Positions 41,062 to 62,197 of a stretch of DNA of 64,000 nucleotides are shown one piece after another (position 1 is the stretch's first letter; each line of letters begins with the position of its first letter). The DNA comes from a bacterium (GTDB lineage Bacteria; UBA8248), in NCBI GenBank assembly GCA_963692865.2, contig OY843592.1, positions 3,008,001-3,072,000 on the forward strand. The letters are read 5' to 3'. The notes beneath the pieces were generated by a model, which saw only the letters and a program-made list of their open reading frames with translations, was not told where the DNA came from and did no database searches. Made by a program: the position numbers and the translations under genes.

Positions 41062-41868
41062 ATGCTCTGGGAACACGCCCTCATTCTCGGCGTCCTCCAA
41101 GGCCTCACTGAATTTCTGCCGGTGAGCAGCTCGGGACACCTCGTTCTGGGCCAGAGCATTCTGGGGCTGAAAGAACCCGAGTTGCTCTTCGACGTCCTGC
41201 TCCACGTCGGCACGCTCGCCGCCGTAATCGTCTTTTACGGAAAAGATATCCGGCGCATCGCCTGGGGCTGGTGCTCTTCCCTGTTGGGCAAGGATTCGGG
41301 CGACGGCGCGGCCAGAACCGGCTGGCTCTTGATTCTAGGATCCATCCCTGCGGGAATTGTGGGCGTTTTTCTGGGCGATCTGGTCGAGCAGATGTTCGCC
41401 TCCCCCAAGCTCGCCGCCTGCGCGCTGCTCGGGACGGGCGGTATTTTAAGCCTGAGCGAACCCCGAAAGGGCGGGGGCCGGGAGGAAGCGCAGATGACGG
41501 CCAAAGACGCCCTCATCATCGGCCTCTTTCAGGCGTTCGCCATCGTTCCGGGCATCTCGCGCTCGGGAGCGACCATCGCCGCCGCCCTCATGCGCGGCGT
41601 GGCGCGCGAGCAGGCCGCGCGCTTCAGCTTCCTGCTGTCCGTGCCAGCGATTCTGGGCGCATTCGCACTCAAGATAAAAGATTTGGAAGGCCCTTTAGGC
41701 GCCAGGCTGCTCCCATACGCCGTCGGGGCGCTCGCCGCGGCTATCGTGGGAACACTCGCCTTGGGCTGGCTCATCCGGCTCGTGCGGGGCGGCAATCTGG
41801 CGCGTTTTCGCTACTACTGCTGGGGCGCGGGCTCAGTGGCCCTCATCTACCTGTTCGCTTCGGGATAG
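41062..41868 (+). CDS. uppP: Undecaprenyl-diphosphatase BacA
   Basis: QGLTEFLPVSSSGHL, PGISRSG, ARFSFLL. Confidence 0.95.
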   Translation: MLWEHALILGVLQGLTEFLPVSSSGHLVLGQSILGLKEPELLFDVLLHVGTLAAVIVFYGKDIRRIAWGWCSSLLGKDSGDGAARTGWLLILGSIPAGIVGVFLGDLVEQMFASPKLAACALLGTGGILSLSEPRKGGGREEAQMTAKDALIIGLFQAFAIVPGISRSGATIAAALMRGVAREQAARFSFLLSVPAILGAFALKIKDLEGPLGARLLPYAVGALAAAIVGTLALGWLIRLVRGGNLARFRYYCWGAGSVALIYLFASG

Positions 41869-41877
41869 CGCGCTTCG

Positions 41878-41967
41878 GACAGGCACGGGGGCCTGTCCCT
41901 ACGGGCCCACCCTCCCGGGTCGGCTTCATACCACAAATCACGAAGCCAGGACTTTTTCAACAACCCC
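41878..41967. mobile_element. 90-bp insert (GTAG-REP hairpin plus one IS-like end) between 10-bp direct repeats
   Basis: GCGCGCTTCG at 41868-41877 and 41968-41977; insert ends GACTTTTTCAACAACCCC; diverged homolog at ~61955-62046. Confidence 0.7.
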
Positions 41968-41978
41968 GCGCGCTTCGC

Positions 41979-42593
41979 CTAGTGCATGGGTGAAAACGAA
42001 GAGGGCACCCAAATTTCCGAATTCTGCGAATCCAGGAACGGGCGCGAACCCGGAGGCCAGTTCGGCAACTCGTGCGCTTTCTTGCGAATCTCGGCGCGGT
42101 GGTTCATGTCCTCATACGCCCAGACGTGAATCCACTGGTTGAGCGGCCCCACGTCGGTCATGAAGAGCGCCGCCAGCGGGGAGAGCTCTTCCCGCGCGGC
42201 GATGTGCTCTGTCCAGCGGCTCAGGACTTCTCCCGTCTTGCCGGGCTGCACGGTGTAGGTTCTGAACTCGTATACGCCGCCATACTGTCCAAGGCGCGGT
42301 TCGGGCCGGAACGGGGGAGCCGTCATGACCTTGCTCTCCTGATCGAGAATGAGATGCCCGTTGGGCGGCGGCCACCAGTCCATCGACATCGTTTTCGCGC
42401 GCACCTCGGCGCGGTGATCCATGCTCTCGTACTGCCAGATATGCCTGATGCGGTTCAGGTCCCCGACCTCGGTATGAAAAAATCCCATGATCGGAGAAAC
42501 TTCGTTCCTCTTGTCGATGACTTTGGCAAAATTCTCCTCGAACTCGGCCACGCCGCCGACGGTCAGCCGATAAGTGCGCATCTCGTATATCAT
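41979..42593 (-). CDS. NIPSNAP family protein (two domains)
   Basis: MIYEMRTY...GDLNRIRHIWQYES and VYEFRTY...GPLNQWIHVWAYED; SFSPMH end; GAGGAG RBS. Confidence 0.9.
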   Translation of the reverse strand: MIYEMRTYRLTVGGVAEFEENFAKVIDKRNEVSPIMGFFHTEVGDLNRIRHIWQYESMDHRAEVRAKTMSMDWWPPPNGHLILDQESKVMTAPPFRPEPRLGQYGGVYEFRTYTVQPGKTGEVLSRWTEHIAAREELSPLAALFMTDVGPLNQWIHVWAYEDMNHRAEIRKKAHELPNWPPGSRPFLDSQNSEIWVPSSFSPMH

Positions 42594-42704
42594 GGAAATT
42601 CTCCTCACAGATGTTTTCAGAAAAAGGATTTATTCGAAGTGTAGGCCTAAGCGTGCAGGCGGGCAAGGACGCGAGGGCTTTATTCGCCCAGGCAGGCTTC
42701 AGAG

Positions 42705-43180
42705 TAACCCCCCAACCCCCCTGCTCAGGGGGGCTTTTCCTCCACCCCTCGTCGGGGGGTATCGCCTTTACCCCCCTGACAAGGGGGGGCAGGGGGGGTG
42801 CTTTTCCAGTCGAGAAGGGCGCCCCCTCTACCCCCGGAAAGGGGTCTTTTTCAACAACCCCATATACACGACCTGCATATCGAATGGGGAGGGCCGCATG
42901 TATGCGTCCCCTATGGGAACATCCCTTTGAGAGATCACAATGCCCGTCATTCCGGCGTATGCCGGAATCCAGGGACTTTGTCTTTGCTCTTTGCCTTTTC
43001 CCATCCGACCGGTGAGAACGCAAAAGACCGGAGCACTTTGATCCTCATCGGCCCTGGATTCCGGCCTTCGCCGGAATGACGAACAAAACCGCACCGCCTC
43101 GCAGGGACACGACCTGTCCCTACCACCTCGCAAACGCAGAATGTCGGGGTTCCGTAGGGGCCGTATATAAGCAGTCCATG
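42705..43180. repeat. Composite palindromic intergenic array 1
   Basis: C6/G6 hairpin pair 42705-42798; IS-like end 42845-42861; CGTC-REP doublet 42945-43081; GTAG hairpins near 43101-43123 and 43154. Confidence 0.8.
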
Positions 43181-43202
43181 ACGGGCGACGAAAAAAGCCT
43201 CC

Positions 43203-44676: not shown

Positions 44677-45854
44677 TTCCCCGCCCCCGTCTCTTTTGGC
44701 GATTCGCCTCGTTCGAGATGGTGACGCCGGCCCTTGGCCTGCAGGAGTCCCTGGGGTCTCAGCACCATCATGAGCACCATGGCGCCCCCCAGAAGCATGG
44801 GCCGGAACAGCGTGAGTTCCCGGAGCGCCTCGGGCAGCACGGTGAGGATGAACGCGCCCAGCATGACGCCCGGAATGCTCGCCATGCCGCCCAGCACCAC
44901 CATGCACAGGATGATGACGGACTCAAAAAACGTAAAACTCTCCGGCGAGATGAACGTCTGCTTCGCGGAGAAGACGACGCCCCCGAACCCCGCCCAGGCG
45001 GCGCCGAAGGCGAAGGCGGAGAGCTTCGTGTAGACGATGTTGACGCCCACGCACTCGGCCACCGTCTCGTCCTCGCGCATGGCCGCCCAGGCGCGGCCCA
45101 GGCGGCTCTTGTCGAGCCGGTTCACGATGAAGATGGTGATGACGCACAAGACGAGAACGAGGTAGTAGAAGTGCATGGGCTTGTAGAGGCGCATCTCGCC
45201 CAGGTAGGGGCGTCCGATGCCCAGGATGCCGTTCGGGCCCTGGGTCACGTTGTCCCAGTTGTTCAAGACCAGGCGGATGATCTCGCCGAAGCCGAGCGTG
45301 ACGATGGCGAGATAATCGCCCCGGAGCCGCAGGACGGGAACGCCCAGAATGACTCCGAACAGGGCGGAGCAGGCCACGCCGACGCCCAAGGCCGGCCAGA
45401 AGGAAAGCCCGTACCAGCTGTTCAGAAGAGCGTAGGAATACGCCCCCACGGCGTAGAAGGCCACGTAGCCCAGATCCAGGAGGCCAGCGAAGCCGACCAC
45501 CACGTTCAGCCCAAGCGCCAGCATGATGTAGATGCCCGTGATGACGAGCACATCGGTGGAGTAGCGGTCGAGCGTCCAGGGGAGCGCGATGATGAGGAGC
45601 AGGAACAGGCTCCAGTAGCGCTTGTCGTAGGATTTCTCCTCGATGAAGCCCCAGGCGGACGTGAAACCGCTCTTGATGCGCTCCGCAGGCTCCGCCAGAG
45701 CGCCGGACTGCACGCTCGCCCGCGCCGCGCTGACCACGAAGACGACGGCGGCGCAGCCCAGCCCTATCCAGAGGCTGTTCTTCCATCCCGCGAGCGGCAG
45801 CGCCAGAAAGGCGAACCACATGCCGATGAGCGGGACTCTCGCGTATGCGCTCAT
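44673..45854 (-). CDS. livM: Branched-chain amino acid ABC permease
   Basis: GLNVVVGFAGLLDLGYVAF, LRGDYLAIVTLGFGEI. Confidence 0.93.
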   Translation of the reverse strand: MSAYARVPLIGMWFAFLALPLAGWKNSLWIGLGCAAVVFVVSAARASVQSGALAEPAERIKSGFTSAWGFIEEKSYDKRYWSLFLLLIIALPWTLDRYSTDVLVITGIYIMLALGLNVVVGFAGLLDLGYVAFYAVGAYSYALLNSWYGLSFWPALGVGVACSALFGVILGVPVLRLRGDYLAIVTLGFGEIIRLVLNNWDNVTQGPNGILGIGRPYLGEMRLYKPMHFYYLVLVLCVITIFIVNRLDKSRLGRAWAAMREDETVAECVGVNIVYTKLSAFAFGAAWAGFGGVVFSAKQTFISPESFTFFESVIILCMVVLGGMASIPGVMLGAFILTVLPEALRELTLFRPMLLGGAMVLMMVLRPQGLLQAKGRRHHLERGESPKETGAGK

Positions 45855-46756
45855 GTTCTGTCCGCCTCGCCGGAGCCGCCCAGGATTCCCTCGGGCCGGA
45901 AAATGAGGACGACGACCAGCACCATGAAGGCGAAGACGTCCTTATAGACGGCGGAGACGTATCCCGCCCAGAAACTCTCCAGAAGCGCCAGCAGAAAACC
46001 GCCCAGGAACGCTCCCGTGACGTTGCCGATGCCGCCCAGCACGGCGGCGGTGAACGCCTTCATACCCGCCACGAAGCCGATGTGGTGGTTCACGATGCCG
46101 TAGTACATCCCCACCATCACGCCGGCCACGGCGGCCAGCACGGAGCCGATGGCGAACGTGACCGCGATCACCCGGTTCACGTTCACGCCGACGAGCGAGG
46201 CCATCGTCCTGTCCTGCGCGGTGGCGCGCATGGCCTTGCCGAGCTTCGTCTTCTTGATGAAAAGCTGAAGAGCGGCCATGAGGCCCAGCGCCAGAATGAG
46301 GATGAAAATCTGGAGGCCGTTCACGTAGGCGCCGAAAAGCTGGAAGCTCCCGAGTTCGAGGAGATTGGGAAACGCCTTGTCCCGCGCTCCCTGCACCACC
46401 TGCACGTAGTTCTGGAGAAAGAGGCTCATGCCTATCGCGCTGATGAGCGGGGAGAGCCTCGGCGCGTTTCGCAGCGGGCGGTAGGCCACGCGCTCCAGGG
46501 TGATTCCATACGCGGCGCAGTAGACCATCGGGATGAGGAAGACGAGAACGATGCTCAGCGCCAGGCTCGTCTGCGTCAGGCCCATCGTCCCCAGCACCGC
46601 AAGGACGGCGATGCCCACGTACGCGCCTATCATGTAGATTTCGCCGTGGGCGAAATTGATGAGCTGCAAGATGCCGTAGACGAGCGTATAGCCCAGGGCG
46701 ATCAGGGCGTATACCGCGCCCACGACGAGTCCGTTCACCAACTGTTGCGCAAACAT
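45851..46756 (-). CDS. livH: Branched-chain amino acid ABC permease
   Basis: YALIALGYTLVYG, INFAHGE, KAFTAAVLGGIG. Confidence 0.94.
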   Translation of the reverse strand: MFAQQLVNGLVVGAVYALIALGYTLVYGILQLINFAHGEIYMIGAYVGIAVLAVLGTMGLTQTSLALSIVLVFLIPMVYCAAYGITLERVAYRPLRNAPRLSPLISAIGMSLFLQNYVQVVQGARDKAFPNLLELGSFQLFGAYVNGLQIFILILALGLMAALQLFIKKTKLGKAMRATAQDRTMASLVGVNVNRVIAVTFAIGSVLAAVAGVMVGMYYGIVNHHIGFVAGMKAFTAAVLGGIGNVTGAFLGGFLLALLESFWAGYVSAVYKDVFAFMVLVVVLIFRPEGILGGSGEADRT

Positions 46757-46783
46757 AGAAAAATCTTTACACGATCACGAGGC

Positions 46784-46828
46784 AAAAAAGAAGGGGAGGC
46801 TTTCGGGGGTGTTGCCTCCCCCCGAAAA
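46784..46828 (-). terminator. Intrinsic terminator between livK and livH, with an alternative competing hairpin
   Basis: Minus strand GGGGAGGC...GCCTCCCC-TTCTTTTTT; overlapping alternative stem TTTCGGGGG/CCCCCGAAA. Confidence 0.65.
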
Positions 46829-46851
46829 CAAATGAATTTCTCAATCGACAT

Positions 46852-47445
46852 ACGCTTTTGAAGTTCACTCCCCCCTTGAGGGGGAGTCAGTGAGCCGAGG
46901 GCGTAGGCCCGAAAGCGAACCGGTGGGGGGCGCTCTCGTTTTGTGTGGAATTTCGTCCCAAAAATCATACCCCCCCGCCGCCTCAAGGGGCTGTTGAAAA
47001 AGCCGGAGAGAGACAATTTGTTTGTAGGTCAGACATATATGTCTGACATATCATGCGACCCTGATTTTCGCCTCCACAAGGCGGGCCGCATGATATGCGG
47101 CCCCTACAAAAACCGTTCCTCCCCGGTCAGGTGAAACATTCGTTCATCAGGACTTTTTCAACAACCCCCTCAAGTGGGGAGTGTTTGGTCGGCGCTCTTA
47201 TAAAGGGAGAGTTATTCCTCCGCCCGCCTTGATCGTCACTCCGGCTTTCGCCGGAATGACGGCGGGGGCAAACCCCTCGGAGAGGAAAGCGGGCTCATCG
47301 GATGGCCCTGCGCAGATCGTGATGATTCTGTAGTGACCCGTCCTGATGGAGGCCTTTGCCCCGATGAAGACGAAGGACAACCACGGGGGGTTGTCCCTAC
47401 AAACCCTCTACCTGGATGGCCCTTGCCGGGTTTTTCAACAACCCC
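46852..47445. repeat. Composite palindromic intergenic array 2
   Basis: ACTCCCCCCTTGAGGGGGAGT hairpin at 46866; MITE 46987-47168; CGTC hairpin ~47234-47261; GTAG hairpin 47375-47400; IS-like end ~47428-47445. Confidence 0.8.
46987..47168. mobile_element. 182-bp MITE with IS-like terminal inverted repeats, carrying a GTAG-REP doublet
   Basis: GGGGCTGTTGAAAAAGCC ... GACTTTTTCAACAACCCC flanked by a CTCAA duplication (up to CCTCAAG); inner GTAG...CTAC cassette 47024-47107. Confidence 0.8.
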
Positions 47446-47486
47446 TTCCGCCTCCCCTCCCATGATTCAGCATGGCGATGCGCGCC

Positions 47487-48611: not shown

Positions 48612-48777
48612 GGGGTTCCTCCTTCAGGTGATTGGAATTCCTGGAAACCGGGCGGGCCGCACGGCCCGTCATCGCGCCGTCATGCGACCCCGCGACGAGG
48701 CCGTGAGAAACAAGGTCATGTCAAGAATACCCTATTTCGGTTCGGCGGCAAAAGTTTTTTTGGGGAGACTTCGCGGA

Positions 48778-48972
48778 CGGCCGGTTGAAAAAGCCCCGCA
48801 GCGACCCCTGCAAACCGCCAACGCCTCTTTCTTCATCCTGAGTAGCCGCCGAAGGTCAAACGCGAGTGAGGAGGGGGGTTGGTTTTGCGGCGTCGGCCCC
48901 TACGGAATCATCCCGTCGCCGACCGGGTAGCGGAACAACCACTCCCCCCTTGAGGGGGCTGCTGAAAACCCC
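48778..48972. repeat. Composite palindromic array 3 upstream of livK
   Basis: IS-like end at ~48780 followed by a CATCCTGAGTAGCCGCC module homologous to 61074-61190; CCCCTACGG module shared with ~49838 and ~61699; ACTCCCCCCTTGAG-GGGGCTGCTGAAAA at 48941-48968. Confidence 0.7.
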
Positions 48973-49616: not shown

Positions 49617-49677
49617 GCAGGGGCCGTTCGCGAACGGCCCTCCCGAAAAAAACGAGCGCTTCACGAAGCGCCCCTAC
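49617..49677. repeat. GTAG-type REP doublet (REPIN-like)
   Basis: GCAGGGGCCGTTCGCGAACGGCCC ... GAGCGCTTCACGAAGCGCCCCTAC. Confidence 0.7.
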
Positions 49678-49697
49678 GGTCGCCATTCAGATTCGAT

Positions 49698-50879: not shown

Positions 50880-50918
50880 GGTCGGATCCCCCGGCTGCTG
50901 CGGAATATCCCCGCCCCC

Positions 50919-53900: not shown

Positions 53901-56900
53901 TGCGACCGGCTTCGACGGAGCGGAGGGCTTCGCGGCGGGCGTCAAGGCGTCCGTCGCCCCCGAAGCGGCGCCCGCGCCGAGCCCGTTCACCGCGCGCACC
54001 CGGAAGCGGTAGGTAACGCCGTTGGTCAGGCCGGTGACGGTGTGGCTCGTCCTGTCCGGACAGTCGGGTTCCGTCGCCGTAACGCAGATGTCGGTCCAGA
54101 CCGTCTCGAAATCTTCGTCCCCGGCCTGCTTGACGTATTGCCACTTCGTGATCGGCGAGCCGCCGTCGCCACCCGAGGTCCAGAAGAGCGTCGCGCTGCC
54201 GTCGCCCGACACCGCGCCCGGCTGCCCGCCCGGCCCGGTTATGGAAGGCGCGGAGGGCGTCGAGACGGGCGTCACGGCGTTCGTCGCCTCCGAAGCGGCC
54301 CCCGCGCCGAGCGCATTCACCGCGCGCACCCGGAAGCGGTAGGCAACGCCGTTGGTCAGGCCGGTGACGGTGTGGCTCGTCCTGTCCGGACAGTCGGGTT
54401 CCATCGCCGTAACGCAGATGTCGGTCCAGACCGTCTCGAAATCGCCGTCCCCGGCCTGCTTGACGTATTGCCACTTCGTGATCGGCGAGCCGCCGTCGCC
54501 ACCCGAGGTCCAGAAGAGCGTCGCGCTGCCGTCGCCCGCCACCGCGCCCGGCTGCCCGCCCGGCCCGGTTATGGAAGGCGCGGAGGGCGCCCCGACGGGC
54601 GTCACGGCGTTCGTCGCCCCCGAAGCGGCGCCCGCGCCGAGCCTGTTCACCGCGCGCACCCGGAAGCGGTAGGCAACGCCGTTGGTCAGGCCGGTGACGG
54701 TGTGGCTCCTCCTGTCCGGGCAGTCGGGTTCCGTCGCCGTAACGCAGATGTCGGTCCAGAACGTCTCGAAATCTTCGTCCCCGGCCTGCTTGACGTACTG
54801 CCACTTCGTGATCGACGAGCCGCCGTCGCCCCCCGAGGTCCAGAAGAACGTCGCGCTGCCGTCGCCCGCCACCGCGCCCGGCTGCCCGCCCGGCCCGGTG
54901 ATGAAAGGCGCGGAGGGCGTCGAGACGGGGTTGGAGGGCCTCACGGCGTCCGACTCGGGCGAAGCGGCGCCGTCGCCCTCGCCGTTCACCGCGCGCACCT
55001 TGAACCTGTATTCCGTGCCGAAGGCGAGGCCGGTGACGGTGTGCTTGGCCCTCTCCGGGCAGTCGGGTTGCGTCGCCGTAACGCAGATGTCGGTCCAGTC
55101 CGTCTCGAAATCTTCGTCCCCGGCCTTCTTGACGTACTGCCACTTCGTGATCGGGTGGCCGCCGTCGCCCCGCGATATCCAGGTCAGCGCGACGCTGCCG
55201 GCGCCGGCGGTCGCGCCCGGCTTCTCCGGCGGGGGGGGCGGCCCGGTGAGCGCCAGTTCGATCGATTCGGGCGAAGCGGCGCCGCCGCCGATCGCGTTCA
55301 CCGCGCGCACCTTGAACTTGTAGGACGTCCCGTTGAACAGGCCCGTCACGGTGTGAGCGTTGAAGAATACTTGCCGGCAGTCGGGGAGCGTATCGTGATC
55401 CGAGGCCATCGCGCAGGCGTCGGTCCAGCTTCCGTAGCCGCCGTAGTTCCCACCGGGCGGCTTGGACGCGAAGGCGTATTGAAACTTCGTGATCCCCGTT
55501 CCGCCGTCGCTCGGCGAGAACCAGTAAAGATTTACGCTCGCGTCGCCCGCCGTCACCGGGTAAAACGAAATCCAAGACGGCGTACCGGGCGGCGCGGCGG
55601 GCGTCACGGCGTTCGATTCGGGCGAATCGACGCCGGGGCCGCCGGTATTCACCGCGCGCACCTTGAACTTGTAGGTATTGCCGTTAATCAGGCCGGTGAC
55701 GGTGTGGCTGGTCCTGTTCGGGCAGGTGGCGTCCTGTGAGGTCTCGCAGATGTCGCTCCAGCTGCCGTAGCCGTAACTCTGCTTGTAGGCGTACTGCCAC
55801 TTCGTGATCGCCGATCCGCCGGCTCCCCCCGAGGTCCACGACAGCGTGACGCTTCGGTCGCCGGGGGTCACCCCCGGCTTCGAGGGCGCGGGGGGCGTCT
55901 CGATCTCGATGAAGTCCGTCTTCGAGAAATCCCGGCCCTCGACGCTCTGGGAGGATTTCAGGGAGACGTTCCACCTGCCGTTCCGAGCCGTGTTACCGGT
56001 GTTGCCATCCTCGTCGTGCAGCGTCGTCCCGTTCAGGACGATGGTCGTCACGCCGCCGTCGTTCATGATGTAGTCGTCCCCGAAGACCTGCGCCATCGTG
56101 CGCCCGTCGAGGGTGAGGCTCACGTGGAGCGCGGGGGCGGTCTCCGTGGCGAGCTTCCTCGCCGCGCGAATCGCCGCGCCCGACGCCGCCCGCAGACTTG
56201 CGTCCTTCCCGATGACCACCTTGCCCCCGCCGGAGAGATACACCCCCGCCGCGTCGCCCGAGCCGCCCGTCACCGAACCGTTCACCGTCACCGTCTGTTG
56301 TCGGTAGCCGTCCGTCCCCAGCTTCGCCGCGAGCTCCAGGGCTTGCGTCGTACTGTTGAACCCGCCTATCCGGACGCCGCTCGCCTTCGCTCCCGAAGCG
56401 GTGAGCGAAGCCCCCGCGCCGATGGAGATCGCTATCGTCCCCTCGCCCGTCCGATGCCCGGCGTAGACGCCGTGGGCGTCCGCGCCCGTCGTCGTGACAC
56501 TGGTGGAGGCGCCCCGAACGTCCAGGTCGATGTCGCCGCCGGCGCCGGTATGGACGCCGTATGCGCCGTGGGAATCCGCGCCGCCCGTGGTGATGGAGGC
56601 GCCGCCCGCCACGTCGATCTCCAAATTGCCCTTGCTGTTCGAGCTTTCGTTGTAATGCCAGGCGAATATCCCGTGGGCGTCGTCGCCCTCCGTCTCGATG
56701 GAGGCGCCGTCAAGGCCCAGATCGACGTTGGCCGACTTCGTCGCCGATGCTATTCCATAATGCAGGCCGTATATCCCGTGGGAGCCGTCTTTCTTCGTGT
56801 TGATCGACGCGCTGCCCGCCACGTCGATCTCGATGTCGCCGTAGATGGGGCCGGTGTTCGAAAGTATGGCATGCCAGGCGGAAATCCCGTGGGACCTCTC

Positions 56901-57593
56901 GCCCTCCGTGGTGATGGAAGCGCTGCCCGCCACGTCGATGTCGGTGTCGCCCTCGATCGTGGCGGTTTGGGTGCTGTCATACTGAAAGGCGTATATCCCG
57001 TCGGCTTCGTCGCCCTTCGTGGTAATCGACGCGCTGCCCGCCACGTCGATGTCGATTTTGCCATCCGCTTTGAAGCCCGGACCCGAGCCTATGTAGTGGT
57101 AGCCGTATATCCCGTGGGAGTCGTCGGAATTCGTGGTGATCGAAGCGCTGCCCTCCACGAGGATTTTGCCGTCCCGTTTGGTCAGGCCGTAGACGCCGTA
57201 TCCTTCATTCGTGGTGGAGGTCAACGTGATCGAGGCGGCTCCATCCACGGTGATGTCGTAGTCGCCGTTGCCCTGGTGCCGGGCCCAGACGCCGTGGATA
57301 TTGCCGGCGTTCGGCGCCGCCGTGGAGATGACGCCGCCCGTCACGTCGATGTCGATGTCGCCCGTATTCTGGTGGTTGCCGTAGACGGCGTGGTTGTCCG
57401 ACGTGGTGATGTCGAAGTTCGTCAGGTCGATGGCCAGGTCGCCGCTCGTCGTCTTCACGCACTTTACCCTTTTCCCGGCCGTGGGGTTGCCCGAAGCGGG
57501 GCATTCCTCCTGCTGCTGGGCCGTAGCCGGCCCGGCGCAGAGGATCAGGGCGGCGGCCAGGGCGACGGCGCCCGCGAGAACCCGCGCACTCAC
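50919..57593 (-). CDS. Large autotransporter-like surface adhesin: signal peptide, beta-helix-like repeats, 11 Fn3 domains, C-terminal beta-barrel. True start probably ATG 57772, currently out of frame
   Basis: Hydrophobic ALAAALILCAGPATA; repeated DIDVAGSASITT.G..A.GIY; Fn3 motifs SVALSW...DGGSPITKWQY...TVTGLTNG..YRFRVRAVN; barrel with WSLWGRG and terminal LRGSLRW. Confidence 0.85.
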   Translation of the reverse strand: MSARVLAGAVALAAALILCAGPATAQQQEECPASGNPTAGKRVKCVKTTSGDLAIDLTNFDITTSDNHAVYGNHQNTGDIDIDVTGGVISTAAPNAGNIHGVWARHQGNGDYDITVDGAASITLTSTTNEGYGVYGLTKRDGKILVEGSASITTNSDDSHGIYGYHYIGSGPGFKADGKIDIDVAGSASITTKGDEADGIYAFQYDSTQTATIEGDTDIDVAGSASITTEGERSHGISAWHAILSNTGPIYGDIEIDVAGSASINTKKDGSHGIYGLHYGIASATKSANVDLGLDGASIETEGDDAHGIFAWHYNESSNSKGNLEIDVAGGASITTGGADSHGAYGVHTGAGGDIDLDVRGASTSVTTTGADAHGVYAGHRTGEGTIAISIGAGASLTASGAKASGVRIGGFNSTTQALELAAKLGTDGYRQQTVTVNGSVTGGSGDAAGVYLSGGGKVVIGKDASLRAASGAAIRAARKLATETAPALHVSLTLDGRTMAQVFGDDYIMNDGGVTTIVLNGTTLHDEDGNTGNTARNGRWNVSLKSSQSVEGRDFSKTDFIEIETPPAPSKPGVTPGDRSVTLSWTSGGAGGSAITKWQYAYKQSYGYGSWSDICETSQDATCPNRTSHTVTGLINGNTYKFKVRAVNTGGPGVDSPESNAVTPAAPPGTPSWISFYPVTAGDASVNLYWFSPSDGGTGITKFQYAFASKPPGGNYGGYGSWTDACAMASDHDTLPDCRQVFFNAHTVTGLFNGTSYKFKVRAVNAIGGGAASPESIELALTGPPPPPEKPGATAGAGSVALTWISRGDGGHPITKWQYVKKAGDEDFETDWTDICVTATQPDCPERAKHTVTGLAFGTEYRFKVRAVNGEGDGAASPESDAVRPSNPVSTPSAPFITGPGGQPGAVAGDGSATFFWTSGGDGGSSITKWQYVKQAGDEDFETFWTDICVTATEPDCPDRRSHTVTGLTNGVAYRFRVRAVNRLGAGAASGATNAVTPVGAPSAPSITGPGGQPGAVAGDGSATLFWTSGGDGGSPITKWQYVKQAGDGDFETVWTDICVTAMEPDCPDRTSHTVTGLTNGVAYRFRVRAVNALGAGAASEATNAVTPVSTPSAPSITGPGGQPGAVSGDGSATLFWTSGGDGGSPITKWQYVKQAGDEDFETVWTDICVTATEPDCPDRTSHTVTGLTNGVTYRFRVRAVNGLGAGAASGATDALTPAAKPSAPSKPVATAGDGSVALSWTPGSDGGSSITKWQYVKQAGDEDFETVWTDICVTATEPDCPDRTSHTVTGLTNGVTYRFRVRAVNGLGAGAASGATNAVTPVSTPSAPSKPVATAGDGSVALSWTPGSDGGSPITKWQYVKQAGDGDFETVWTDICVTAMEPDCPDRTSHTVTGLTNGVTYRFRVRAVNALGAGAASEATDALTPAAKPSAPSKPVATAGDGSVALSWTPGSDGGSSITKWQYVKQAGDGDFETVWTDICVTAMEPDCPDRTSHTVTGLTNGVTYRFRVRAVNRLGAGAASGATNAVTPVSTPSAPSKPVATAGDGSVALSWTPGSDGGSPITKWQYVKQAGDGDFETVWTDICVTAMEPDCPDRTSHTVTGLTNGVTYRFRVRAVNALGAGAASEATDALTPAAKPSAPSKPVATAGDGSVALSWTPGSDGGSSITKWQYVKQAGGGAFETAWRDVPGSGASTRRHTVASLVNGVAYRFKVRAVNAAGEGAASPASDAVTPVWSPPAMRGWLARFGRAVGSQAVEMISSRMNAPAPGGAKVTLGGRSVDLNADPDRYLAKEGAGFGSASLTHGGTDSRGLARARAANRPANGEEDSPAYREMTMSEFLRGGSFHLASAGEGEAVPGGRWSLWGRGARTSFEGGGAAAIEGDVSTAMLGVDYEKNAVLMGVALSHARGEGGFESGGRSGVEATLTSAHPYLRFALNERVTAWGVLGMGRGEMTLEMDRKDVRQKAEAETDIEMRMAAFGLRGELAKVGGFDLAVKSDVLLAQTDADAKDGLDAVSAEATRLRVMLEASREVSMKDGGAFRPSVEAGLRHDGGDADEGAGVEVGGSLRFTSPALGLTLEFKARGLLTHEEEDAADWGAGGMIRIAPGEAGRGLALTVRPEMGETAGGAARLWGLKDASRLAKEEVRGLDPRVRAEVGYGLDAWGGLLTPYAGLSVSEGGSGIYRLGGRFKVGERLSMSVEGDVRERENDDPAHGVALRGSLRW
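52388..55900 (-). repeat. Tandem Fn3-coding repeats (312-bp and 330-bp periods)
   Basis: Shadow ORFs recur at 52774/53086/53398/53710/54022 (step 312) and 54352/54682 (step 330); DNA is near-identical between units. Confidence 0.95.
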
Positions 57594-57772
57594 GCCGCGC
57601 CTCTTCTTTGGAGACTGGAGACTGGAGACTGGAGACTGGAGACTGGAGACTGGAGACTGGAGACTGGAGACTGGAGACTGGAGACTGGAGACTGGAGACT
57701 GGAGACTGGAGACTGGAATTTCATGATATCACGTTTCGGAGAGCGGATAAACGCCGGCTTGGAAGCATTCAT
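57590..57772 (-). CDS. Leader ORF / frameshifted 5' end of the adhesin, containing (QSPVSSL)5
   Basis: AAGGAGG (57785-57779) lies 6 nt before ATG 57772; its TGA overlaps the adhesin GTG (GTGA, 57593-57590). Confidence 0.7.
   Translation of the reverse strand: MNASKPAFIRSPKRDIMKFQSPVSSLQSPVSSLQSPVSSLQSPVSSLQSPVSSLQRRGAA
57609..57717. repeat. Perfect heptanucleotide SSR (TGGAGAC)x15 + TGGA
   Basis: Counted directly: 57609-57713 = 105 nt. Confidence 0.98.
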
Positions 57773-57797
57773 GACCAACCTCCTTGAGCGTCGTTCC

Positions 57798-57856
57798 CGA
57801 TTCGGTCACACCGCATGAAGCGAGGAAGCCGGAATCCCGGCTTCTGTGCCGAATCG
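57798..57856 (-). promoter_or_regulatory. Structured 5' leader upstream of the adhesin RBS
   Basis: Outer stem CGATTCGG(T)CACA/TGTGCCGAATCG encloses the hairpin GAAGCCGG-AATC-CCGGCTTC; AT-rich putative promoter at 57860-57970. Confidence 0.5.
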
Positions 57857-58293
57857 CTTGAATTATTTTAACCTCAACCCTAACTTCGTCGCGGAATTGG
57901 TTAAATTATTTTGATTTTTATATTTTTAGCACACTGATATGGCGCATTGCAATACGATCGTTTGATTAACGAGGGGGCGGGGCCGCGGCTTGTCCTCAAG
58001 GGAGGCCGACACCTTGCGGAAGGCGCGAAGCTTCGCAGGGCCGGATATGACCGCGGGGCAGGCGCGGGAGCCTCGAACAGGCGCAGGGGCGCCTGTCTCT
58101 ATGGGGGCGCATTCTATATCCGCAGGGGGCAGTCCCGAGGAGGAGCGGCCCCGGGTATGCGTAATTCCTCACTCTTCGAGGTTGTTGAAAAGGGAATTGT
58201 AGAGAATAGTTGACAAACATATTTCGTCAACCTGATTATACTCTTGCCGGCGAGTTGGGGAAACTGGATGGCTGGAATGAAAGGACGGAAGCA

Positions 58294-58491
58294 ATGACAA
58301 CCTACGAAACATTAAATCTCCTGTCATCGCTTCCCATGCCGATAGTTGTAAGTGTCGGCATTTATGCAATGGCTCAAGCAAACAACAAAAGAGCGGAGGC
58401 AGGCAAAAAAACTGAAGATGCGCTTACGGAAGCCATCGCAGGATTACGTGATGCCAATCGAGCCTTGCGAGAAATTTTGGAAAAGAAATAA
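58294..58491 (+). CDS. Small hypothetical protein (65 aa): N-terminal hydrophobic segment plus coiled coil
   Basis: MTTYETLNLLSSLPMPIVVSVGIYAMAQANNKRAEAGKKTEDALTEAIAGLRDANRALREILEKK; AAGGA upstream; AT-richer than neighbouring genes. Confidence 0.55.
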   Translation: MTTYETLNLLSSLPMPIVVSVGIYAMAQANNKRAEAGKKTEDALTEAIAGLRDANRALREILEKK

Positions 58492-58560
58492 TCCTGTGCG
58501 ACCCGGAATGCTTGCTCCGCAAAAAGATTCGAGATATCTGGTCAAGTAAAATTGATAACT

Positions 58561-58763
58561 CCCGTTGAAAAAGCCGGAGAGAGACAATTTGTTTGTAGGT
58601 GATAACCTCTCCTCGGGGTTGTCCCGCGCATATCATGCGGCCCGCCTTGTAGAGGCGAAAATCAGGGCCGCATGATATGTCAGACATATATGCCTGACCT
58701 ACAAAAACCATTCCTCGTCGGTCGCATCGAACCCTCGTTCATCAGGACTTTTTAACAGGCCCC
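58561..58763. mobile_element. Second copy of the 46987-47168 MITE with the inner cassette inverted
   Basis: Same outer arms (GTTGAAAAAGCCGGAGAGAGACAATTTGTTTGTAGG; CCTACAAAAACC...CGTTCATCAGGACTTTT); inner 58595-58702 matches 47024-47107 on the opposite strand. Confidence 0.85.
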
Positions 58764-58801
58764 CTTCAGGGCCGTTGAAAAAGTCCCGGACGAACCGCCC
58801 G

Positions 58802-59368: not shown

Positions 59369-59400
59369 CTGTCCGAAAAACCTCCTGATGATGAAAATGG

Positions 59401-60471
59401 CTACAAGACGACGAGTTCCTTCGTGATCGAGCGGGTGAGCACCTCCCTGCCCCGCTCGGTGACGAGAACCATATCCTCGATTCTCACGCCGCCCCAGCGG
59501 GGCAGATAGATGCCGGGCTCCACCGTCACCACCATGCCGGGCCGGAGCTCCTCCCTGACGCCGGGACCGAGCCTGGGGGCTTCGTGGATGTCGAGCCCCA
59601 CGCCGTGGCCCGTGCCGTGCCCGAAAGCCTCGCCGTAGCCGTACGCTGTGATGACGTCGCGGGCGGCCCTATCCACCTCCCCGCAGGGGACGCCCGGCCG
59701 CACGGCTTCCAGCGCCGTCATCTGGGCTTCGAGGACGACGTTATATATCTTCTCTCCCTTGGGCGACGGCTTTCCCAGCGAGAACACCCGCGTCGTATCC
59801 GCATGGTAGCCCGACACCACGGCCCCGAAATCGACCGTGATGAGGTCGCCTTTTTTGAGTTTGCGCGAGGAGGCGATGCCGTGCGGGAGGGCCGAGCGCG
59901 GCCCCGAGGCGACGATGGTGTCGAAAGAAGCGCCCGAGGCGCCCCTTCTCCTCATCGCGGTTTCGAGATCGAGCGCGACTTCCGACTCGGCGCGGCCCGG
60001 ACGAATCGACGCCGAAACCTCCTGCAGGGCCCCCGCGTTCACCCGCGCGCCTTTTTTGAGTTTTTTGATCTCGCCCGAATCCTTGCAGAGCCTCAAACCC
60101 TCCACGAGGCCCGAGACGGGTTTCAGGCGCACGCCCTTCACGAGCCTTCGCATCTGCCGATACGCCCCGTGGACGAGGTGCGCTTCTTCGAAGCCGAGCG
60201 TCTTCGCCCTCGTTTTCTTGAGTTCCGCCGCTATCCCCGGAAGCGGGGAGGGGTGCTCGGCGCGGCGAAAACCGGGCGGCGCCTCTTTCGCCGCCTGCGA
60301 GCGGTAGCGGAAATCCGTGATGAAGACGGCGCTCCTCGGGAGGATCAGGCATGCGCCCGCAGAACCCGTGAACCCGGTGAGATAGTGGAGGTTCTTCCTG
60401 TTCGTCACGGCGAGGGCCGCGAGGCCTTCGCGCCGCATCGCCTTTCTCAGGGCGCCCAGACGCTGCCTCAT
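59401..60471 (-). CDS. Xaa-Pro aminopeptidase (M24B)
   Basis: [39 protein letters not shown]; aroQ-peptidase-efp order; start ATG at 60471. Confidence 0.92.
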
Positions 60472-60965
60472 TCTCCCTCCGCCGGAAACGTCAACCCCTT
60501 GACGCAGGCGTCGACCGCCGCGCGCAGGGCCAGGGCGTAGCCCGCCAGGCCGAACCCGACCACGCTTCCCGCCGCCACGGGCCCGATCATCGAGCGGTGC
60601 CGGAAACCCTCGCGCTTCAGGACGTTCGAGATGTGCACCTCGTAGACGGGCAGATCCAGGCCGCCTATCGCGTCCCGGAGCGCGACGCTGGTGTGGGTGT
60701 ATCCCCCCGGATTGAAGACGCAGGCGGCGCATACGCCCGCGGGAGCCGCTCTTTTCAAGGGCCGCTTCACGCCCGCCGCGCGCTGTAAGGCGTCGATGAG
60801 TTCTCCCTCGACGTTGGACTGGAAACACTCGAGCTCCACCCCCTCGTCCGCGGCCATACGGACCAGGGCCGCCTCGAGTTCGGCCAGCGTCGTCCTGCCG
60901 TAGACTTCCGGCTCGCGCGTTCCCAGCAGATTGAGGTTCGGGCCGTTCAAAAGCAGTATTCTCAT
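60468..60965 (-). CDS. aroQ: Type II 3-dehydroquinate dehydratase
   Basis: LNGPNLNLLGTREPEVYG, QSNVEG, NPGGYTHTS, EVHISN; start ATG at 60965. Confidence 0.95.
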   Translation of the reverse strand: MRILLLNGPNLNLLGTREPEVYGRTTLAELEAALVRMAADEGVELECFQSNVEGELIDALQRAAGVKRPLKRAAPAGVCAACVFNPGGYTHTSVALRDAIGGLDLPVYEVHISNVLKREGFRHRSMIGPVAAGSVVGFGLAGYALALRAAVDACVKGLTFPAEGE

Positions 60966-61073
60966 GTGTCCACCCGAAGAGGGTCTATCGCATCCGCATG
61001 AAAACAGGTAGCGAATGGTAGAAAACACGGGCGGCGGCGTCAATGAACGGGAGCCACCGAACTCGTGATTAAC

Positions 61074-62197
61074 GGGCTGGTCGAAAAAGCCCCGCATGCG
61101 ACCCCCGCAAACCGCCGACGCTTCTTCCCTCACCCTGAGTAGCCGCCGGGGGTCAAACGCGACTGAGAAGGAGCGTTTGTATCGAAGGGTGAAATTCGCG
61201 CCCACCGTAGAGGTGCGCCCCGGCGAACCCTCCCTCATCGGAGTTGCTGAAAAAGCCCACAGAAGGAACACAACGAGTTTCACTCCCCCCTTGAGGGGGC
61301 TGTTGAAAAAACCCTGATTTCGCGACTCGGCGAATGCAGCCGACCGGGAAGGGAGGGTTCGACGGTTTTGATCGTCATTCCGGTGTCGGAGCCGACCGCG
61401 GAGGGAGGTCGAACCCGATTGATGAATGAGGGTTCGACGGAATCCAGAGCCGATATGAATTTCGAGCCGCAGGACGACCATGAAAAACAATCATGCGAAA
61501 AGACGAATTCAAAAGCAAAGTCCCTGGATTCCGGCATGCGCCGGAATGACGGCGCGTAATCTCGATTGTAGGGGCCGCATATCATGCGGCCCGTTGCCGG
61601 AGACGCGAAAAAGGCTGGGCCGCATGATATGTCAAACATATATGTCTGACCTACAATGCTATCGCGTTTTGCGTAGCAGGACAGGCACGGAGGCCTGTCC
61701 CTACGGGATCATCACGTCGCCGACCGAGCGCGGAACAGGGTTTTTCAACGGCCCCAAAGGGGGGAGTGAACTTCAAAAGCGTGCGCGCAACTAAAATCGC
61801 TCCCGAGGACTTTTTCAACAATCCCATACACGCAGCCCTTGACGGGCGGCGAAAAGGCTGGGTCGCATGGTATGCGACCCCTACAACAGGAACGGCAATA
61901 ACGTCGGAATGACGAACAAAACCGTTCCACTTCATTTGGACAGATCGCGATCTCGGACGGGCCGGGGGCCTCTACGCTACGGACCCTCCTCCTCGATTGG
62001 TTTCATACACCAAATCTCGAAATCAGGACTATTTCAACAACCCCCCTCAAGGGGGGAGTGAAATTCAAAAGCGTGCGCACAACTCAAAATTGCTTCCCGG
62101 GACTTTTCAACAGGCCCTCATCGGTCGGGTTCGTGCCTTCGATACGCGGCTTCGCCGCTACTCAGGATGAGACAGAGAGGGCTTTTTCCACAACCCC
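61074..62197. repeat. Composite palindromic intergenic array 5 (1.1 kb, nested ends) between aroB and aroQ
   Basis: Left-type ends at ~61074, ~61240 and 61296; right-type ends ending at ~61755, 61825, 62046, 62117 and 62197; CGTC doublet 61373-61551; GTAG doublet 61568-61654. Confidence 0.85.

Follow-up and report, generated by a model that had tools for sequence, protein, structure and literature searches.

Intergenic repeat mosaics in a UBA8248 bacterium, probably formed by nested insertion of IS1182-type MITEs and other non-autonomous repeats

The window analysed here is a stretch of 64,000 nucleotides (contig OY843592.1, positions 3,008,001–3,072,000, forward strand) and lies within a 3.94-Mb contig. 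The sequence GGGGYTGTTGAAAAA, hereafter the TIR, matched the window 14 times with at most one mismatch, always between 41,953 and 62,197 (chance expectation 0.02; reached by none of 100 shuffled sequences). With up to three mismatches, 22 matches were found within 41,868–62,197, near the "about 23" ends reported in the first-pass annotation, and only four more, all with three mismatches, in the remaining ~44 kb. A motif scan of 41,868–62,197 gave seven CGTC hairpins, eight CACTCCCCCCTTGAGGG-type ends, three CATCCTGAGTAGC modules and GTAG hairpins of at least four classes. In a BLAST comparison of the six large intergenic gaps with the whole genome, each block had tens to ~300 copies. Exact genome-wide occurrences were 413 for the TIR 15-mer, 390 for CGTCATTCCGGC, 302 for GTAGGGGYCGCATA, 154 for ACTCCCCCCTTGAGGGGG and 62 for CATCCTGAGTAGC. 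The gaps had been described as built from one shared kit of recurring blocks, which the BLAST results and motif counts bore out; the parts of this kit are repeat families spread genome-wide.

The leftmost element (41,878–41,968, minus strand) is a 5'-truncated IS1182-type MITE, of which 19 near-full copies elsewhere extend further left. It consists of a GTAGGGACAGGC-class REP (41,878–41,902), a subterminal block and a TIR (41,953–41,967), and is flanked by a direct repeat of 9–10 bp, GCGCGCTTC(G). At 42,700–42,861, C-run/G-run hairpins (CCCCCTGCTCAGGGGG, CCCCCTGACAAGGGGG) are followed by a TIR on the minus strand (42,847–42,861); hairpins of these types are favoured targets of MITEs and IS, with target site duplications (TSDs) GACAA and TTGTC. 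A head-to-head dimer of CGTC-type REPs (137 bp, 42,945–43,081) adjoins a GTAGGGACAGGT REP (43,098–43,123). A 640-bp mosaic (46,806–47,445) sits in a bidirectional terminator hairpin, AGGGGAGGC-TTTC-GCCTCCCCT, where it fills the loop; its outer end is a decayed TIR (~46,813) on the left and a TIR at 47,431–47,445 on the right. Within it lie the left part of a "D" element beginning with CACTCCCCCCTTGAGGG (46,866–46,935, plus strand), a complete 182-bp IS1182-type MITE with a GTAG REPIN as cargo and the 5-bp TSD CTCAA (46,987–47,168, plus strand), and a solitary CGTC palindrome, CGTCACTCCGGC-TTTC-GCCGGAATGACG (47,234–47,261).

A 10-kb insertion follows. Its left border (48,778–48,969, plus strand) comprises a TIR-like end (48,778–48,792), a half E module (CATCCTGAGTAGC) at 48,834, a D-type end at 48,940 and, adjoining it, a TIR (48,955–48,969). 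It contains a 555-bp tandem duplication of two units plus a third REPIN (49,698–50,879, plus strand; C1:3057698-3058324 vs 3058253-3058879, 99.5% identity). The units are bounded by REPINs at 49,698–49,769, 50,253–50,324 and 50,808–50,879, and each holds a MITE right end (TIR 49,879–49,893 or 50,434–50,448), a CGTC element (49,918–50,107 or 50,473–50,662) and a MITE left end (50,159 or 50,714). The right border (58,565–58,782) is formed by a MITE (58,565–58,762) of the same family as that at 46,987–47,168 and, after it, an extra TIR (58,768–58,782); in this border MITE the TIRs have decayed and the REP head is a variant. The last gap is an outer MITE with E-module cargo (61,074–62,197, plus strand; CACCCTGAGTAGC at 61,131, CATCCTGAGTAGC on the minus strand at 62,157–62,169), interrupted by nested insertions totalling ~950 bp. 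These include a second-level MITE (61,240–61,825, plus strand; TIRs 61,240–61,254 and 61,811–61,825), in which a D-type hairpin was struck by a third-level 460-bp MITE (61,296–61,755, plus strand). The latter, a member of a four-member cluster, carries a CGTC dimer, a GTAG REPIN and a GTAGGGACAGGC REP. Further MITE right-end pieces lie on the minus strand at 61,826–62,117 (TIRs 62,030–62,044 and 62,103–62,117; D-type end 62,044–62,060). Three MITE levels are thus readable at 61,074–62,197, as expected from the nesting proposed earlier.

The TIR was shown to terminate MITEs of 107–600 bp. Among consecutive matches (≤1 mismatch), at least 200 of 243 +/− pairs were spaced ≤498 bp, and only 26 of 242 −/+ pairs. 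Contig C1 held 259 TIR pairs spaced 80–600 bp. An exact 5-bp TSD flanked 54 of them, against 5 after shuffled pairing; when 3–5 terminal G/C were allowed, the numbers were 77 and 9. Stems with ≥4/6 pairs flanked 40 of these 77 TSDs and stems with ≥5/6 pairs 16, compared with 5% and 0.7%, respectively, of 20,000 random sites. By sequence, the IS described below and the MITEs both make target duplications of 5 bp (at times 4 bp) and favour the loops of hairpins with C-run/G-run stems, namely terminators, "D" element ends and CCCCCTGACAAGGGGG-type hairpins. The earlier proposal that insertions go into the hairpins of other repeats is supported by TSDs flanked by hairpin stems; the transposase would perform these insertions. 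An exact TSD was kept by only 30% of the TIR pairs, the rest being decayed, rearranged or perhaps of other origin. Two of the cleanest presence/absence events lack a 5-bp TSD: the truncated MITE at 41,878–41,968 is flanked by the 9–10-bp repeat, and a 151-bp extra piece in a CGTC hairpin of contig C5 by a 9-bp repeat. These two events may reflect microhomology, slippage or another enzyme.

The first-pass annotation had likened the ends to those of IS1182 and placed the enzymes outside the window, and a cognate full IS was found there. This 1,514-bp IS, present genome-wide as two identical intact copies, both elsewhere in the chromosome, and one fragment, is the autonomous partner of the MITEs. 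Its transposase scored 345.5 bits (cut-off 270) against the NCBIfam IS1182 family model (NF033551) and matched Pfam DUF772, DDE_Tnp_1_6 and DDE_Tnp_1. Its TIRs and flanks read CACTCCCCCCTTGAG on the left and TTGAGGGTCGGGC on the right, and its homology to the MITEs is confined to the terminal ~16–20 bp. In relatives, TIR pairs spaced ~1.5 kb were present at 38 of 44 loci of full IS copies; an exact 5-bp TSD was found at 26 of these 38, and 21 of the 26 had ≥5/6 stem pairs. The TIR 15-mer occurred in 31–338 copies in 13 of 18 congeners and not at all in five, and at most twice in each of 12 genomes beyond the genus. The TIR expansion is restricted to the genus.

The MITE interiors were shown to be made of other repeats: GTAG REPINs, CGTC REP dimers, D elements and E modules. 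Intervals between paired TIRs make up 1.8% of C1 and contained 46% of the G1 and 54% of the G1b REP heads, 33% of the CGTC 12-mers, 34% of the D ends and 42% of the E cores. Outward-facing TIRs lay within 200 bp on both sides of 68 of 132 REPINs and 37 of 109 CGTC dimers, compared with 3 of 241 shifted controls; 25 of the REPINs and 30 of the dimers had no TIR within 200 bp. The CGTC hairpins noted earlier are real, but occur mostly as head-to-head dimers of 130–145 bp (n = 109 on C1; exact solitary palindromes, n = 22). Congener G007 has 107 CGTC 12-mers and lacks the TIR 15-mer. REPINs and CGTC dimers are therefore not bound to the MITE shells. The 182-bp MITE at 46,987–47,168 has 19 full-length copies in the genome. 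Since five of these are ≥95% identical and each has its own target duplication (CTCAA, GACAA, CTCAA, TTGAG and TTCTC), the REP cargo travels with the shell, in agreement with the idea that shells spread it, and MITEs with such cargo have transposed as units. In this family, 36 copies linked to a TIR have the same shell-to-REP junction, and their REP heads come in three variants; the heads differ at one fixed position adjoining GTAGG, which suggests REP-level remodelling.

The RAYT (Y1 HUH) genes flanked by matching hairpins that had been predicted were also located outside the window. Three RAYT-like genes are each flanked on both sides by their own GTAG REP class. Their proteins have visible HUH and Y..NP motifs and Pfam Y1_Tnp matches of 24.1 and 26.2 bits (cut-off 23), and, with 59 and 65 bits, stay under the 80-bit equivalog cut-off of NCBIfam. 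They are putatively active on the REPs. REPs were also observed within ORFs, including one RAYT gene. The ACTCCCCCCTTGAGGGGG repeat is real, but had been taken for a free hairpin class; it forms the ends (TIR) of the D element, which is ~170–190 bp long, separate from the MITEs and present on C1 in 63 copies of 150–330 bp. An IS110-family IS, the transposase of which (237 bits, cut-off 140) is present in six identical copies, sits at one D-element position in five of the six. This is a third enzyme class, acting on the ACTCCCCCCTTGAGGGGG motif and overlooked in the first-pass annotation; a search for its bridge RNA gave no Rfam match.

Empty sites, which had been proposed as a check, were found in relatives at 41.9, 46.8–47.4 and 61.1–62.2 kb. 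The MITE at 41,878–41,968 is missing in G011, G012 and G002, where two convergent genes abut, and likewise in G013 and G031 (block table). At 46.8–47.4 kb, five relatives have the intact terminator hairpin only, and G011 has another filling with an identical right junction. The empty site was also seen in short-read data: in the two public runs X22 and X24, one contig each connects 46,805 directly with 47,454, skipping 648 bp. The whole stretch 48,640–58,798 is the 10-kb insertion, missing from five related genomes. At 61.1–62.2 kb, G013 is empty and G011 has an intact ~200-bp E-type MITE at the junctions (GTGATTAAC/GGG... ...CCCC/(C)TAAC, slashes marking the junctions), while G002, G012 and G031 hold other cargo at these junctions. 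The assembly contains strain-variant contigs, which differ at repeat sites (for instance, C1 and C4 by a 56-bp TIR-to-TIR indel), and 6.7% contamination. Logan contigs from four runs of one study showed no differences to the unique parts of the window and cross from unique DNA into repeats (e.g. 41,875–42,971, 45,835–46,881 and 47,373–48,865). As short-read contigs break inside the mosaics, the mosaic interiors are those of the assembly alone.

The intergenic mosaics are very likely the outcome of repeated nested insertion of several independent non-autonomous repeat families, one of which builds most of them. We infer the mobility of the elements from comparison of sequences. The IS1182-type MITEs, sharing their TIRs with the autonomous IS, land preferentially in the loops of G/C-clamped hairpins. 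Because the TIR ends in GGGG, an insertion into a C6-loop-G6 hairpin would leave both junctions with a C-run/loop/G-run hairpin, and every insertion would thereby make fresh targets; this would account for the arrays and the nesting. Recombination between repeats adds tandem duplications and deletions, as seen in the examples, and probably also replaces cargo. The earlier interpretation of a layered mobile system held for the ends, the IS, the RAYT-like genes, nesting, empty sites and unit transposition, but not for a dedicated capture step: none was seen, and nested insertion with inter-repeat recombination fits the data equally well.

It is conceivable, although we regard it as rather unlikely, that the shells are sinks and not vehicles, i.e., that REPINs and CGTC dimers insert themselves into hairpins of existing MITEs, which seldom spread cargo. 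The same REPIN occurs in several shell types (one cluster), half of the REPINs are not enclosed by a complete TIR pair, and REP dimers are described as "inserted within" palindromes in other species in PMC3733652. However, the identical shell-to-REP junction in 36 copies and the five full-length copies that are ≥95% identical and have separate TSDs argue that at least the MITE family of the window spread after gaining its cargo.

Active capture would mean that shells possess a dedicated mechanism for taking up REP modules and that the DDE and HUH enzymes form one interdependent, co-evolved system; it seems improbable. The strong shell–cargo association would fit it, as would the differing cargo of G002, G011, G012, G031 and G000 at the outer 61.07–62.19-kb junctions, the restriction of IS–MITE similarity to the TIRs, the remodelling of REP heads within one shell family and the co-variation of TIR and CGTC counts in most congeners, the genomes being kin and non-independent. 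Yet no capture event was observed, and cargo could be replaced if a nested insertion were followed by loss of the DNA between two direct TIR copies, as the C1/C4 indel exemplifies for such a deletion; moreover, shell-free cargo exists, and G007 has CGTC REPs without the TIR. Host-function sites under selection (terminators, protein-binding or uptake sequences), suggested by the many copies at gene ends, by hairpins that could terminate transcription and by the terminator-like target at 46.8 kb, are contradicted by inverted pairing at MITE distances, TSDs, a full IS with identical ends, empty sites in close relatives and absence from 5 of 18 congeners, making this reading highly implausible. 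A false joining of scattered repeats during assembly, for which short-read contigs stopping inside repeats, strain variants and contamination might speak, is just as hard to credit given the Logan contigs reaching into repeats, the 3.94-Mb contig and the same families at orthologous junctions in separately assembled relatives.

Mosaic regions of Neisseria are known as NIMEs. Such regions and the BIMEs of E. coli, as outlined in PMC3733652, resemble the present mosaics in that different small repeats are interleaved in intergenic clusters, mostly downstream of genes. In contrast to these outlines, the layers can be resolved here into a succession of transposon insertions marked by TSDs, and sister species hold orthologous empty or simpler sites. 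REP-targeting elements of the IS110/IS1111 group include ISPpu9/10 and IS621. The IS110-family transposase found here, with five of six copies at one and the same site in a repeated element that bears hairpins, resembles those elements, whereas its target is the ~170–190-bp D element and no classical REP. REP-targeting IS110/IS1111 elements are treated in a preprint (10.64898/2026.03.19.712850).

The GTAG-headed hairpins arranged as inverted doublets recall REPIN/RAYT systems (Bertels & Rainey 2011), and the several REP classes, each with its own flanked RAYT-like gene, as well as REPs within ORFs, RAYT gene included, recall these and the GTAG REP super-family (PMC3733652). Here, in contrast to the systems as presented there, about half of the REPINs lie inside the TIRs of DDE-type MITEs and move with them, and the RAYT-like proteins are divergent. 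The CGTC repeats share with CGTC-1 (Di Nocera et al. 2013, PMC3733652) the CGTC head, an 8-bp stem starting with AT, a 4-nt loop and a CCA tail, and form head-to-head dimers, also in the window. In H. neapolitanus, according to PMC3733652, every CGTC-1 dimer lies inside a 41-bp palindrome with arms ending in ...GAAAaACC, which by eye resemble the TIR; that paper regards the palindromes as insertion targets and reports no transposase for CGTC REPs. In the present genome, the palindrome arms that flank the repeats were shown to be TIRs belonging to an IS1182-family element that has TSDs.

Close parallels are the IS1182 members IS1272 and TnSha1 of staphylococci, which target hairpins and terminators (PMC4923244; PMC5678879); PMC4923244 cites a review in which some IS1182 members target palindromes. 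The IS1182-family transposase, the single ORF, the TIRs and insertion at hairpins or terminators are common to both. This clade also has hundreds of MITE derivatives, none of which were found described for the IS1182 family in the literature searched. Whereas IS1272/TnSha1, as characterised in those two accounts, cuts in the stem and deletes part of the hairpin without a TSD, insertion here is in the loop, with a duplication of 5 bp (at times 4 bp) and both stem halves kept.

Six intergenic gaps at 41,868–62,197 of the window had been read in the first-pass annotation as built from one shared kit of repeats, with MITE shells that capture and spread REP modules. The named repeat parts were recovered there by a motif scan of the window and, across the genome, by BLAST and exact counts, and this observation stands. 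The motif GGGGYTGTTGAAAAA occurred 14 times in the window with at most one mismatch, always between 41,953 and 62,197 (chance expectation 0.02). A scan for the terminal inverted repeat (TIR) allowing up to three mismatches gave 22 matches within 41,868–62,197 and four elsewhere in the window, each with three mismatches. Positions 1–41,867 were nearly free of kit repeats (four such TIR-like matches and one match similar to the E module described below), and the repeat load along the chromosome was very uneven. When the six gaps were searched against the genome with BLAST, each block recurred tens to approximately 300 times. Exact genome-wide counts were 413 for the TIR 15-mer, 302 for GTAGGGGYCGCATA, 390 for CGTCATTCCGGC, 154 for ACTCCCCCCTTGAGGGGG and 62 for CATCCTGAGTAGC.

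The TIRs were arranged as the ends of short elements. With at most one mismatch, 806 matches were found in the genome (402 on the plus and 404 on the minus strand). Consecutive plus/minus pairs lay no more than 498 bp apart in at least 200 of 243 cases, compared with only 26 of 242 minus/plus pairs, a pattern characteristic of short elements whose GGGG tips face outward. A looser core pattern identified 259 TIR pairs spaced 80–600 bp on the main contig (C1). An exact 5-bp direct repeat surrounded 54 of these 259 pairs (shuffled pairing: 5), and 77 had an exact 5-bp target site duplication (TSD) when 3–5 terminal G/C were allowed (shuffled pairing: 9). The most frequent duplications were TTGAG, GACAA, CTCAA, TTGTC and TTCTC. 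These elements are small, present in many copies and without coding capacity, and have the TIRs of an autonomous IS, as is characteristic of MITEs. The TIR 15-mer was confined to the genus, with 31–338 copies in 13 of 18 congeners, none in the other five and no more than two in each of 12 genomes outside the genus.

A full IS with the same TIRs (GGGGCTGTTGAAAAACCCC and its complement) was located outside the window by genome self-comparison and inspection of the ends. Its two copies on C1 (approximately 1,499,148–1,500,661 and 1,724,374–1,725,887) are 1,514 bp long and share the same setting, with CACTCCCCCCTTGAG on one side and TTGAGGGTCGGGC on the other. Each contains one 480-aa ORF between the TIRs, the layout of the IS1182 family, whose elements have a total length of 1.3–2 kb. 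The protein encoded by the two copies is identical, and one more fragment was present in the genome. The transposase matched the IS1182 family model NF033551 (345.5 bits, cut-off 270) and the Pfam domains DUF772, DDE_Tnp_1_6 and DDE_Tnp_1. The MITEs agreed with this IS in TSD length and target preference, both favouring C-run/G-run hairpin loops, and their TIR identity with it covered the outer 16–20 bp only. Derivation of the MITEs from the IS by internal deletion found no support, as copy depth along the IS sequence fell from approximately 130–260 to 25 or less past about 20 bp at both ends, with no homology beyond the TIR. The MITEs are TIR shells and not deletion derivatives of the IS.

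Among relatives, with one genome per species scanned, 44 related IS loci were found, and TIR pairs approximately 1.5 kb apart were present in 38. Exact 5-bp duplications flanked 26 of these 38 full ISs, and at least five of six flanking stem pairs were formed in 21 of the 26. Two alphaproteobacterial IS copies with 59–60% identity retained GGGGCTGTTGAAAAA. Several of the relatives' full ISs (L015, L016, L018, L022, L027 and L039) had unlike hairpin halves on either side and lacked a TSD, for example CCCCCTTGTC to the left and CTCAAGGGGGG to the right of the IS. Such a pattern would be expected from chromosome rearrangement by recombination between IS copies.

The sequences around the duplications indicated where the MITEs had inserted. 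In 40 of the 77 MITEs with a TSD, the duplicated pentamer was flanked by at least four of six complementary bases, compared with 5% of 20,000 random sites, which places the insertions in hairpin loops. Typical sites were CCCCCC-TTGAG-GGGGG, CCCCCC-TTGTC-AGGGGGG and CGCTCCC-TTCTC-AGTCGCG, and in the flank logo positions −16 to −10 were 45–72% C.

The MITEs carried other repeat types as cargo between their TIRs. The 259 MITEs formed 117 clusters, of which the large ones were distinguished by their cargo: 57 members held GTAG REPINs (inverted REP doublets), 27 held D elements and 20 held E modules, and CGTC dimers were found in clusters of 10, 5, 3 and 3. The intervals between paired TIRs made up 1.8% of C1 and held 46% of the heads of the GTAG class G1, 54% of the TCAGACATATATGTCTGA variant, 33% of the CGTC 12-mers, 34% of the D ends and 42% of the E cores. 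Outward-facing TIRs lay within 200 bp on both sides of 68 of 132 REPINs and 37 of 109 CGTC dimers (shifted controls: 3 of 241); no TIR was found within 200 bp of 25 REPINs and 30 CGTC dimers. A 182-bp MITE (46,987–47,168) had 19 full-length copies in the genome. Five copies were at least 95% identical; no two of them occupied the same hairpin loop, and each had a separate duplication, so the cargo had travelled with the shell. The junction between shell and REP was identical in 36 TIR-linked copies of this family. The REP arm beside GTAGG existed in three versions: some copies were plain, some contained an 18-nt palindrome and some a hairpin of approximately 30 nt. This is REP-level change within one shell.

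Alignment of five related genomes to 40–64 kb of the window (coding DNA approximately 84–92% identical) revealed empty sites. The element at 41,878–41,968 was missing in G011, G012 and G002, as inspected in the alignments, and in G013 and G031 according to the block table. It is a left-truncated MITE with a flanking repeat of 9–10 bp and not 5 bp. At 46,806–47,445, the genomes G012, G018, G031, G013 and G001 had only a terminator-like hairpin, AGGGGAGGC-TTTC-GCCTCCCCT, between convergent genes. In the source genome (G000) and G011 the same loop contained MITE ends, with different interiors. The region 46,760–47,470 lies between a gene for a branched-chain amino-acid ABC transporter permease and a convergent gene of 401 aa, which apparently share the terminator. 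The stretch 61,074–62,197 was empty in G013. It contained one small MITE in G002, approximately 400–500 bp in G012 and G031, and an intact MITE of about 200 bp with E cargo in G011; in G000 a MITE of the G011 type was split by approximately 950 bp of further insertions. The outer junctions were common to the five filled genomes. The proposed nesting of elements was legible in G000 to at least three levels, as 61,074–62,197 contains 61,240–61,825, which in turn contains 61,296–61,755.

All five relatives had a plain promoter region of approximately 160–170 bp in place of 48,640–58,798. This stretch of 10.16 kb has MITE ends at both borders and includes a 2,224-aa ORF (50,919–57,593, minus strand; up to 73% G+C) with at least nine fibronectin type III repeats (Pfam fn3, E 1.8e-113), the DNA of which is internally repeated with a period of about 300–310 bp. 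A 555-bp tandem duplication at 49,698–50,879, with units 99.5% identical, was bounded by three copies of one 72-bp REPIN and looks, from its sequence, like the product of unequal recombination between REPINs.

Contigs from public sequencing runs were compared with the window as well. Logan contigs from a single study (four runs) showed no differences in unique DNA and extended into the repeats. Runs with small shares (0.10–0.21), labelled as sponge, marine or coral metagenomes, were left out of the comparison and provide no evidence of habitat. One contig each from two runs (X22 and X24) joined 46,805 to 47,454, skipping 648 bp with four letters in between, and represents an empty-site variant. 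The contigs aligned to the window reached 49,700, the edge of the 555-bp duplication. They did not span the mosaic interiors and neither support nor contradict the module order there.

The assembly itself (4.15 Mb, 61% G+C; completeness 97.4%, contamination 6.7%) offered a further comparison. The window lies on C1 (3.94 Mb) at 3,008,001–3,072,000, and seven small contigs (C2–C8, 17.8–50.5 kb) duplicated regions of C1, mostly at 96–99% identity. Such near-copies and the contamination value indicate a second strain, from which C2–C8 probably derive. They differed from C1 chiefly at repeat sites and in a few kb-scale replacements; no indels of 12 bp or more were found within megablast HSPs, the differences being confined to HSP borders. 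C5 exceeded C1 by 151 bp in a CGTC hairpin, where a 9-bp repeat was present. A 56-bp TIR-to-TIR unit occurred once more in C1 than in C4, and in one intergenic region the MITEs of C1 and C4 differed. Two other duplications were observed on C1. The EF-Tu gene was present twice (1,578,413–1,579,617 and 1,594,615–1,595,818; 99.3% identical), a tuf duplication and not a mobile element. A 100% identical pair of 3.4-kb copies (3,484,017–3,487,391 and 3,809,358–3,812,732), with inverted repeats of approximately 30 bp at the ends and ORFs of 794 and 304 aa, is probably another IS or transposon, IS66-like by eye.

For the GTAG REPs, candidate enzymes were found in the genome. A genome scan with Pfam Y1_Tnp gave no match, which was a false negative: three RAYT-like genes were located by tblastn with the ORFs of relatives, followed by hmmscan of the ORFs. 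The first (C1:1,531,604–1,532,143, 179 aa) lies between GTAGGGGCCGCATAYCATGCGGCCC arrays. The second (C1:17,530–18,054, 174 aa) has GTAGGGACAGGTCGCGACCTGTCC upstream and one copy within the ORF, and the third (approximately C1:861,557–861,961) is truncated and situated among REPs of the GTAGGGGCGGAC type. The two intact proteins scored 24.1 and 26.2 bits against Y1_Tnp (cut-off 23). Against the NCBIfam model REP_Tyr_transpos ('REP-associated tyrosine transposase'), the three scored 59.2, 65.2 and 23.7 bits, missing the equivalog-level cut-off of 80. HUH (NHIHG, DHLHG) and Y..NP motifs were visible. The proteins are related to REP-associated tyrosine transposases but divergent, and the arrangement is that of a REPIN/RAYT system, with a Y1 HUH transposase-like gene flanked by its associated REPs. 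REPs were also observed within the reading frames themselves: the second gene is apparently still open, and the third was truncated by REP insertions. In-frame stretches derived from REPs occurred in RAYT-like ORFs of relatives, too, as short tblastn matches.

The CGTC hairpins have the form CGTC-ATTCCGGC-GAAA-GCCGGAAT-CCA, and C1 contained 109 dimers, mostly 130–145 bp, and 22 solitary palindromes. With the CGTC-1 family of Di Nocera et al. (PMC3733652), they share the CGTC head, an 8-bp stem starting with AT, the 4-nt loop, the CCA tail and the head-to-head dimers. No TSD was found at the CGTC/GACG borders of any of the 109 dimers for k ≥ 3. The conserved flanks of the dimers suggest that the real unit is larger than the dimer. 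One related genome (G007) had 107 CGTC 12-mers and zero TIR 15-mers.

Another motif, which the first-pass annotation had counted among the hairpins of the MITE kit, is indeed repeated but belongs to a separate element, D, of which it forms the inverted-repeat end. D had 63 copies of 150–330 bp, with a peak at 169–185 bp, and its left part of approximately 165 bp occurred 85–110 times; an identical 3-bp flank surrounded 11 of the 63 copies. The E module is a pair of inverted arms of approximately 34 bp, as in the MITE cluster with E cargo. An IS110-family IS with six copies and an identical transposase (NF033542, 237 bits, cut-off 140; PF01548 (DEDD) and PF02371 (Transposase_20) above their cut-offs) broke the D element at one and the same hairpin in five of the six copies, a site-specific insertion into a repeat. 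At the gathering threshold, Rfam gave no match on the window or on the IS loci L001 and L002, the latter being the IS110-family IS, and identified no bridge RNA there.

From the sequence patterns, we consider it most likely that the IS1182-family transposase, acting in trans, moves any TIR-bounded DNA into hairpin loops with a 5-bp duplication. Since the TIR tip is GGGG, both junctions of an element that has entered a C-run/loop/G-run hairpin would again carry hairpins resembling the original. These junction hairpins should form new targets, which would account for the arrays and the nesting. The hairpin-rich REPINs, CGTC dimers, and D and E elements are insertion targets and become cargo when they have been enclosed. 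The GTAG REPs are probably maintained and remodelled by the RAYT-like enzymes, the IS110 element homes to D, and recombination between copies adds duplications (for example the 555-bp tandem repeat), deletions and, probably, cargo replacement. A farther-reaching reading, which we put forward tentatively and consider less likely than not, is that IS1182-family MITEs that seek hairpin loops serve generally as vehicles of REP-type repeats and are in particular the missing mobilizer of CGTC dimers, building self-amplifying nested mosaics as the GGGG tip rebuilds targets and as DDE, HUH and RNA-guided IS110 enzymes act on each other's products.

REPs rank among the most common repeats of bacteria, and their mode of spread is only partly known. 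The source genome and most of its genus provide a natural example: a large fraction of both the GTAG and the CGTC REPs lies within the ends of an ordinary DDE transposon, an autonomous copy is present, and empty sites in sister species allow insertions to be dated. The mobilizer of CGTC REPs and the pile-up of repeats in mosaics are thereby open to direct test. Hairpin targeting by IS1182 elements is extended to a clade that uses the loop, with duplication, and is able to hit transcription terminators, where insertions may alter the expression of neighbouring genes.

In a limited literature search, we found no account of IS1182-type MITEs with REP cargo. That REPs can be IS targets is already known, as are REPIN/RAYT systems and mosaic intergenic regions (PMC3733652). 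GTAG REPs are tied to RAYTs, and no enzyme is known for CGTC REPs; Di Nocera et al. conclude that the latter lack a dedicated transposase. The same authors describe REP dimers of A. variabilis and H. neapolitanus that are enclosed in palindromes, which they interpret as targets (PMC3733652). The palindrome arms of H. neapolitanus end in ...GAAAaACC and by eye resemble the TIR described here. Within the IS1182 family, IS1272/TnSha1 is described as targeting hairpins and terminators by stem cleavage with partial deletion and without duplication (PMC4923244; PMC5678879). In contrast, the clade described here inserts into the loop with a 5-bp duplication. The parts are familiar; new are their combination, the loop-with-duplication mode and a possible explanation for the spread of CGTC REPs.
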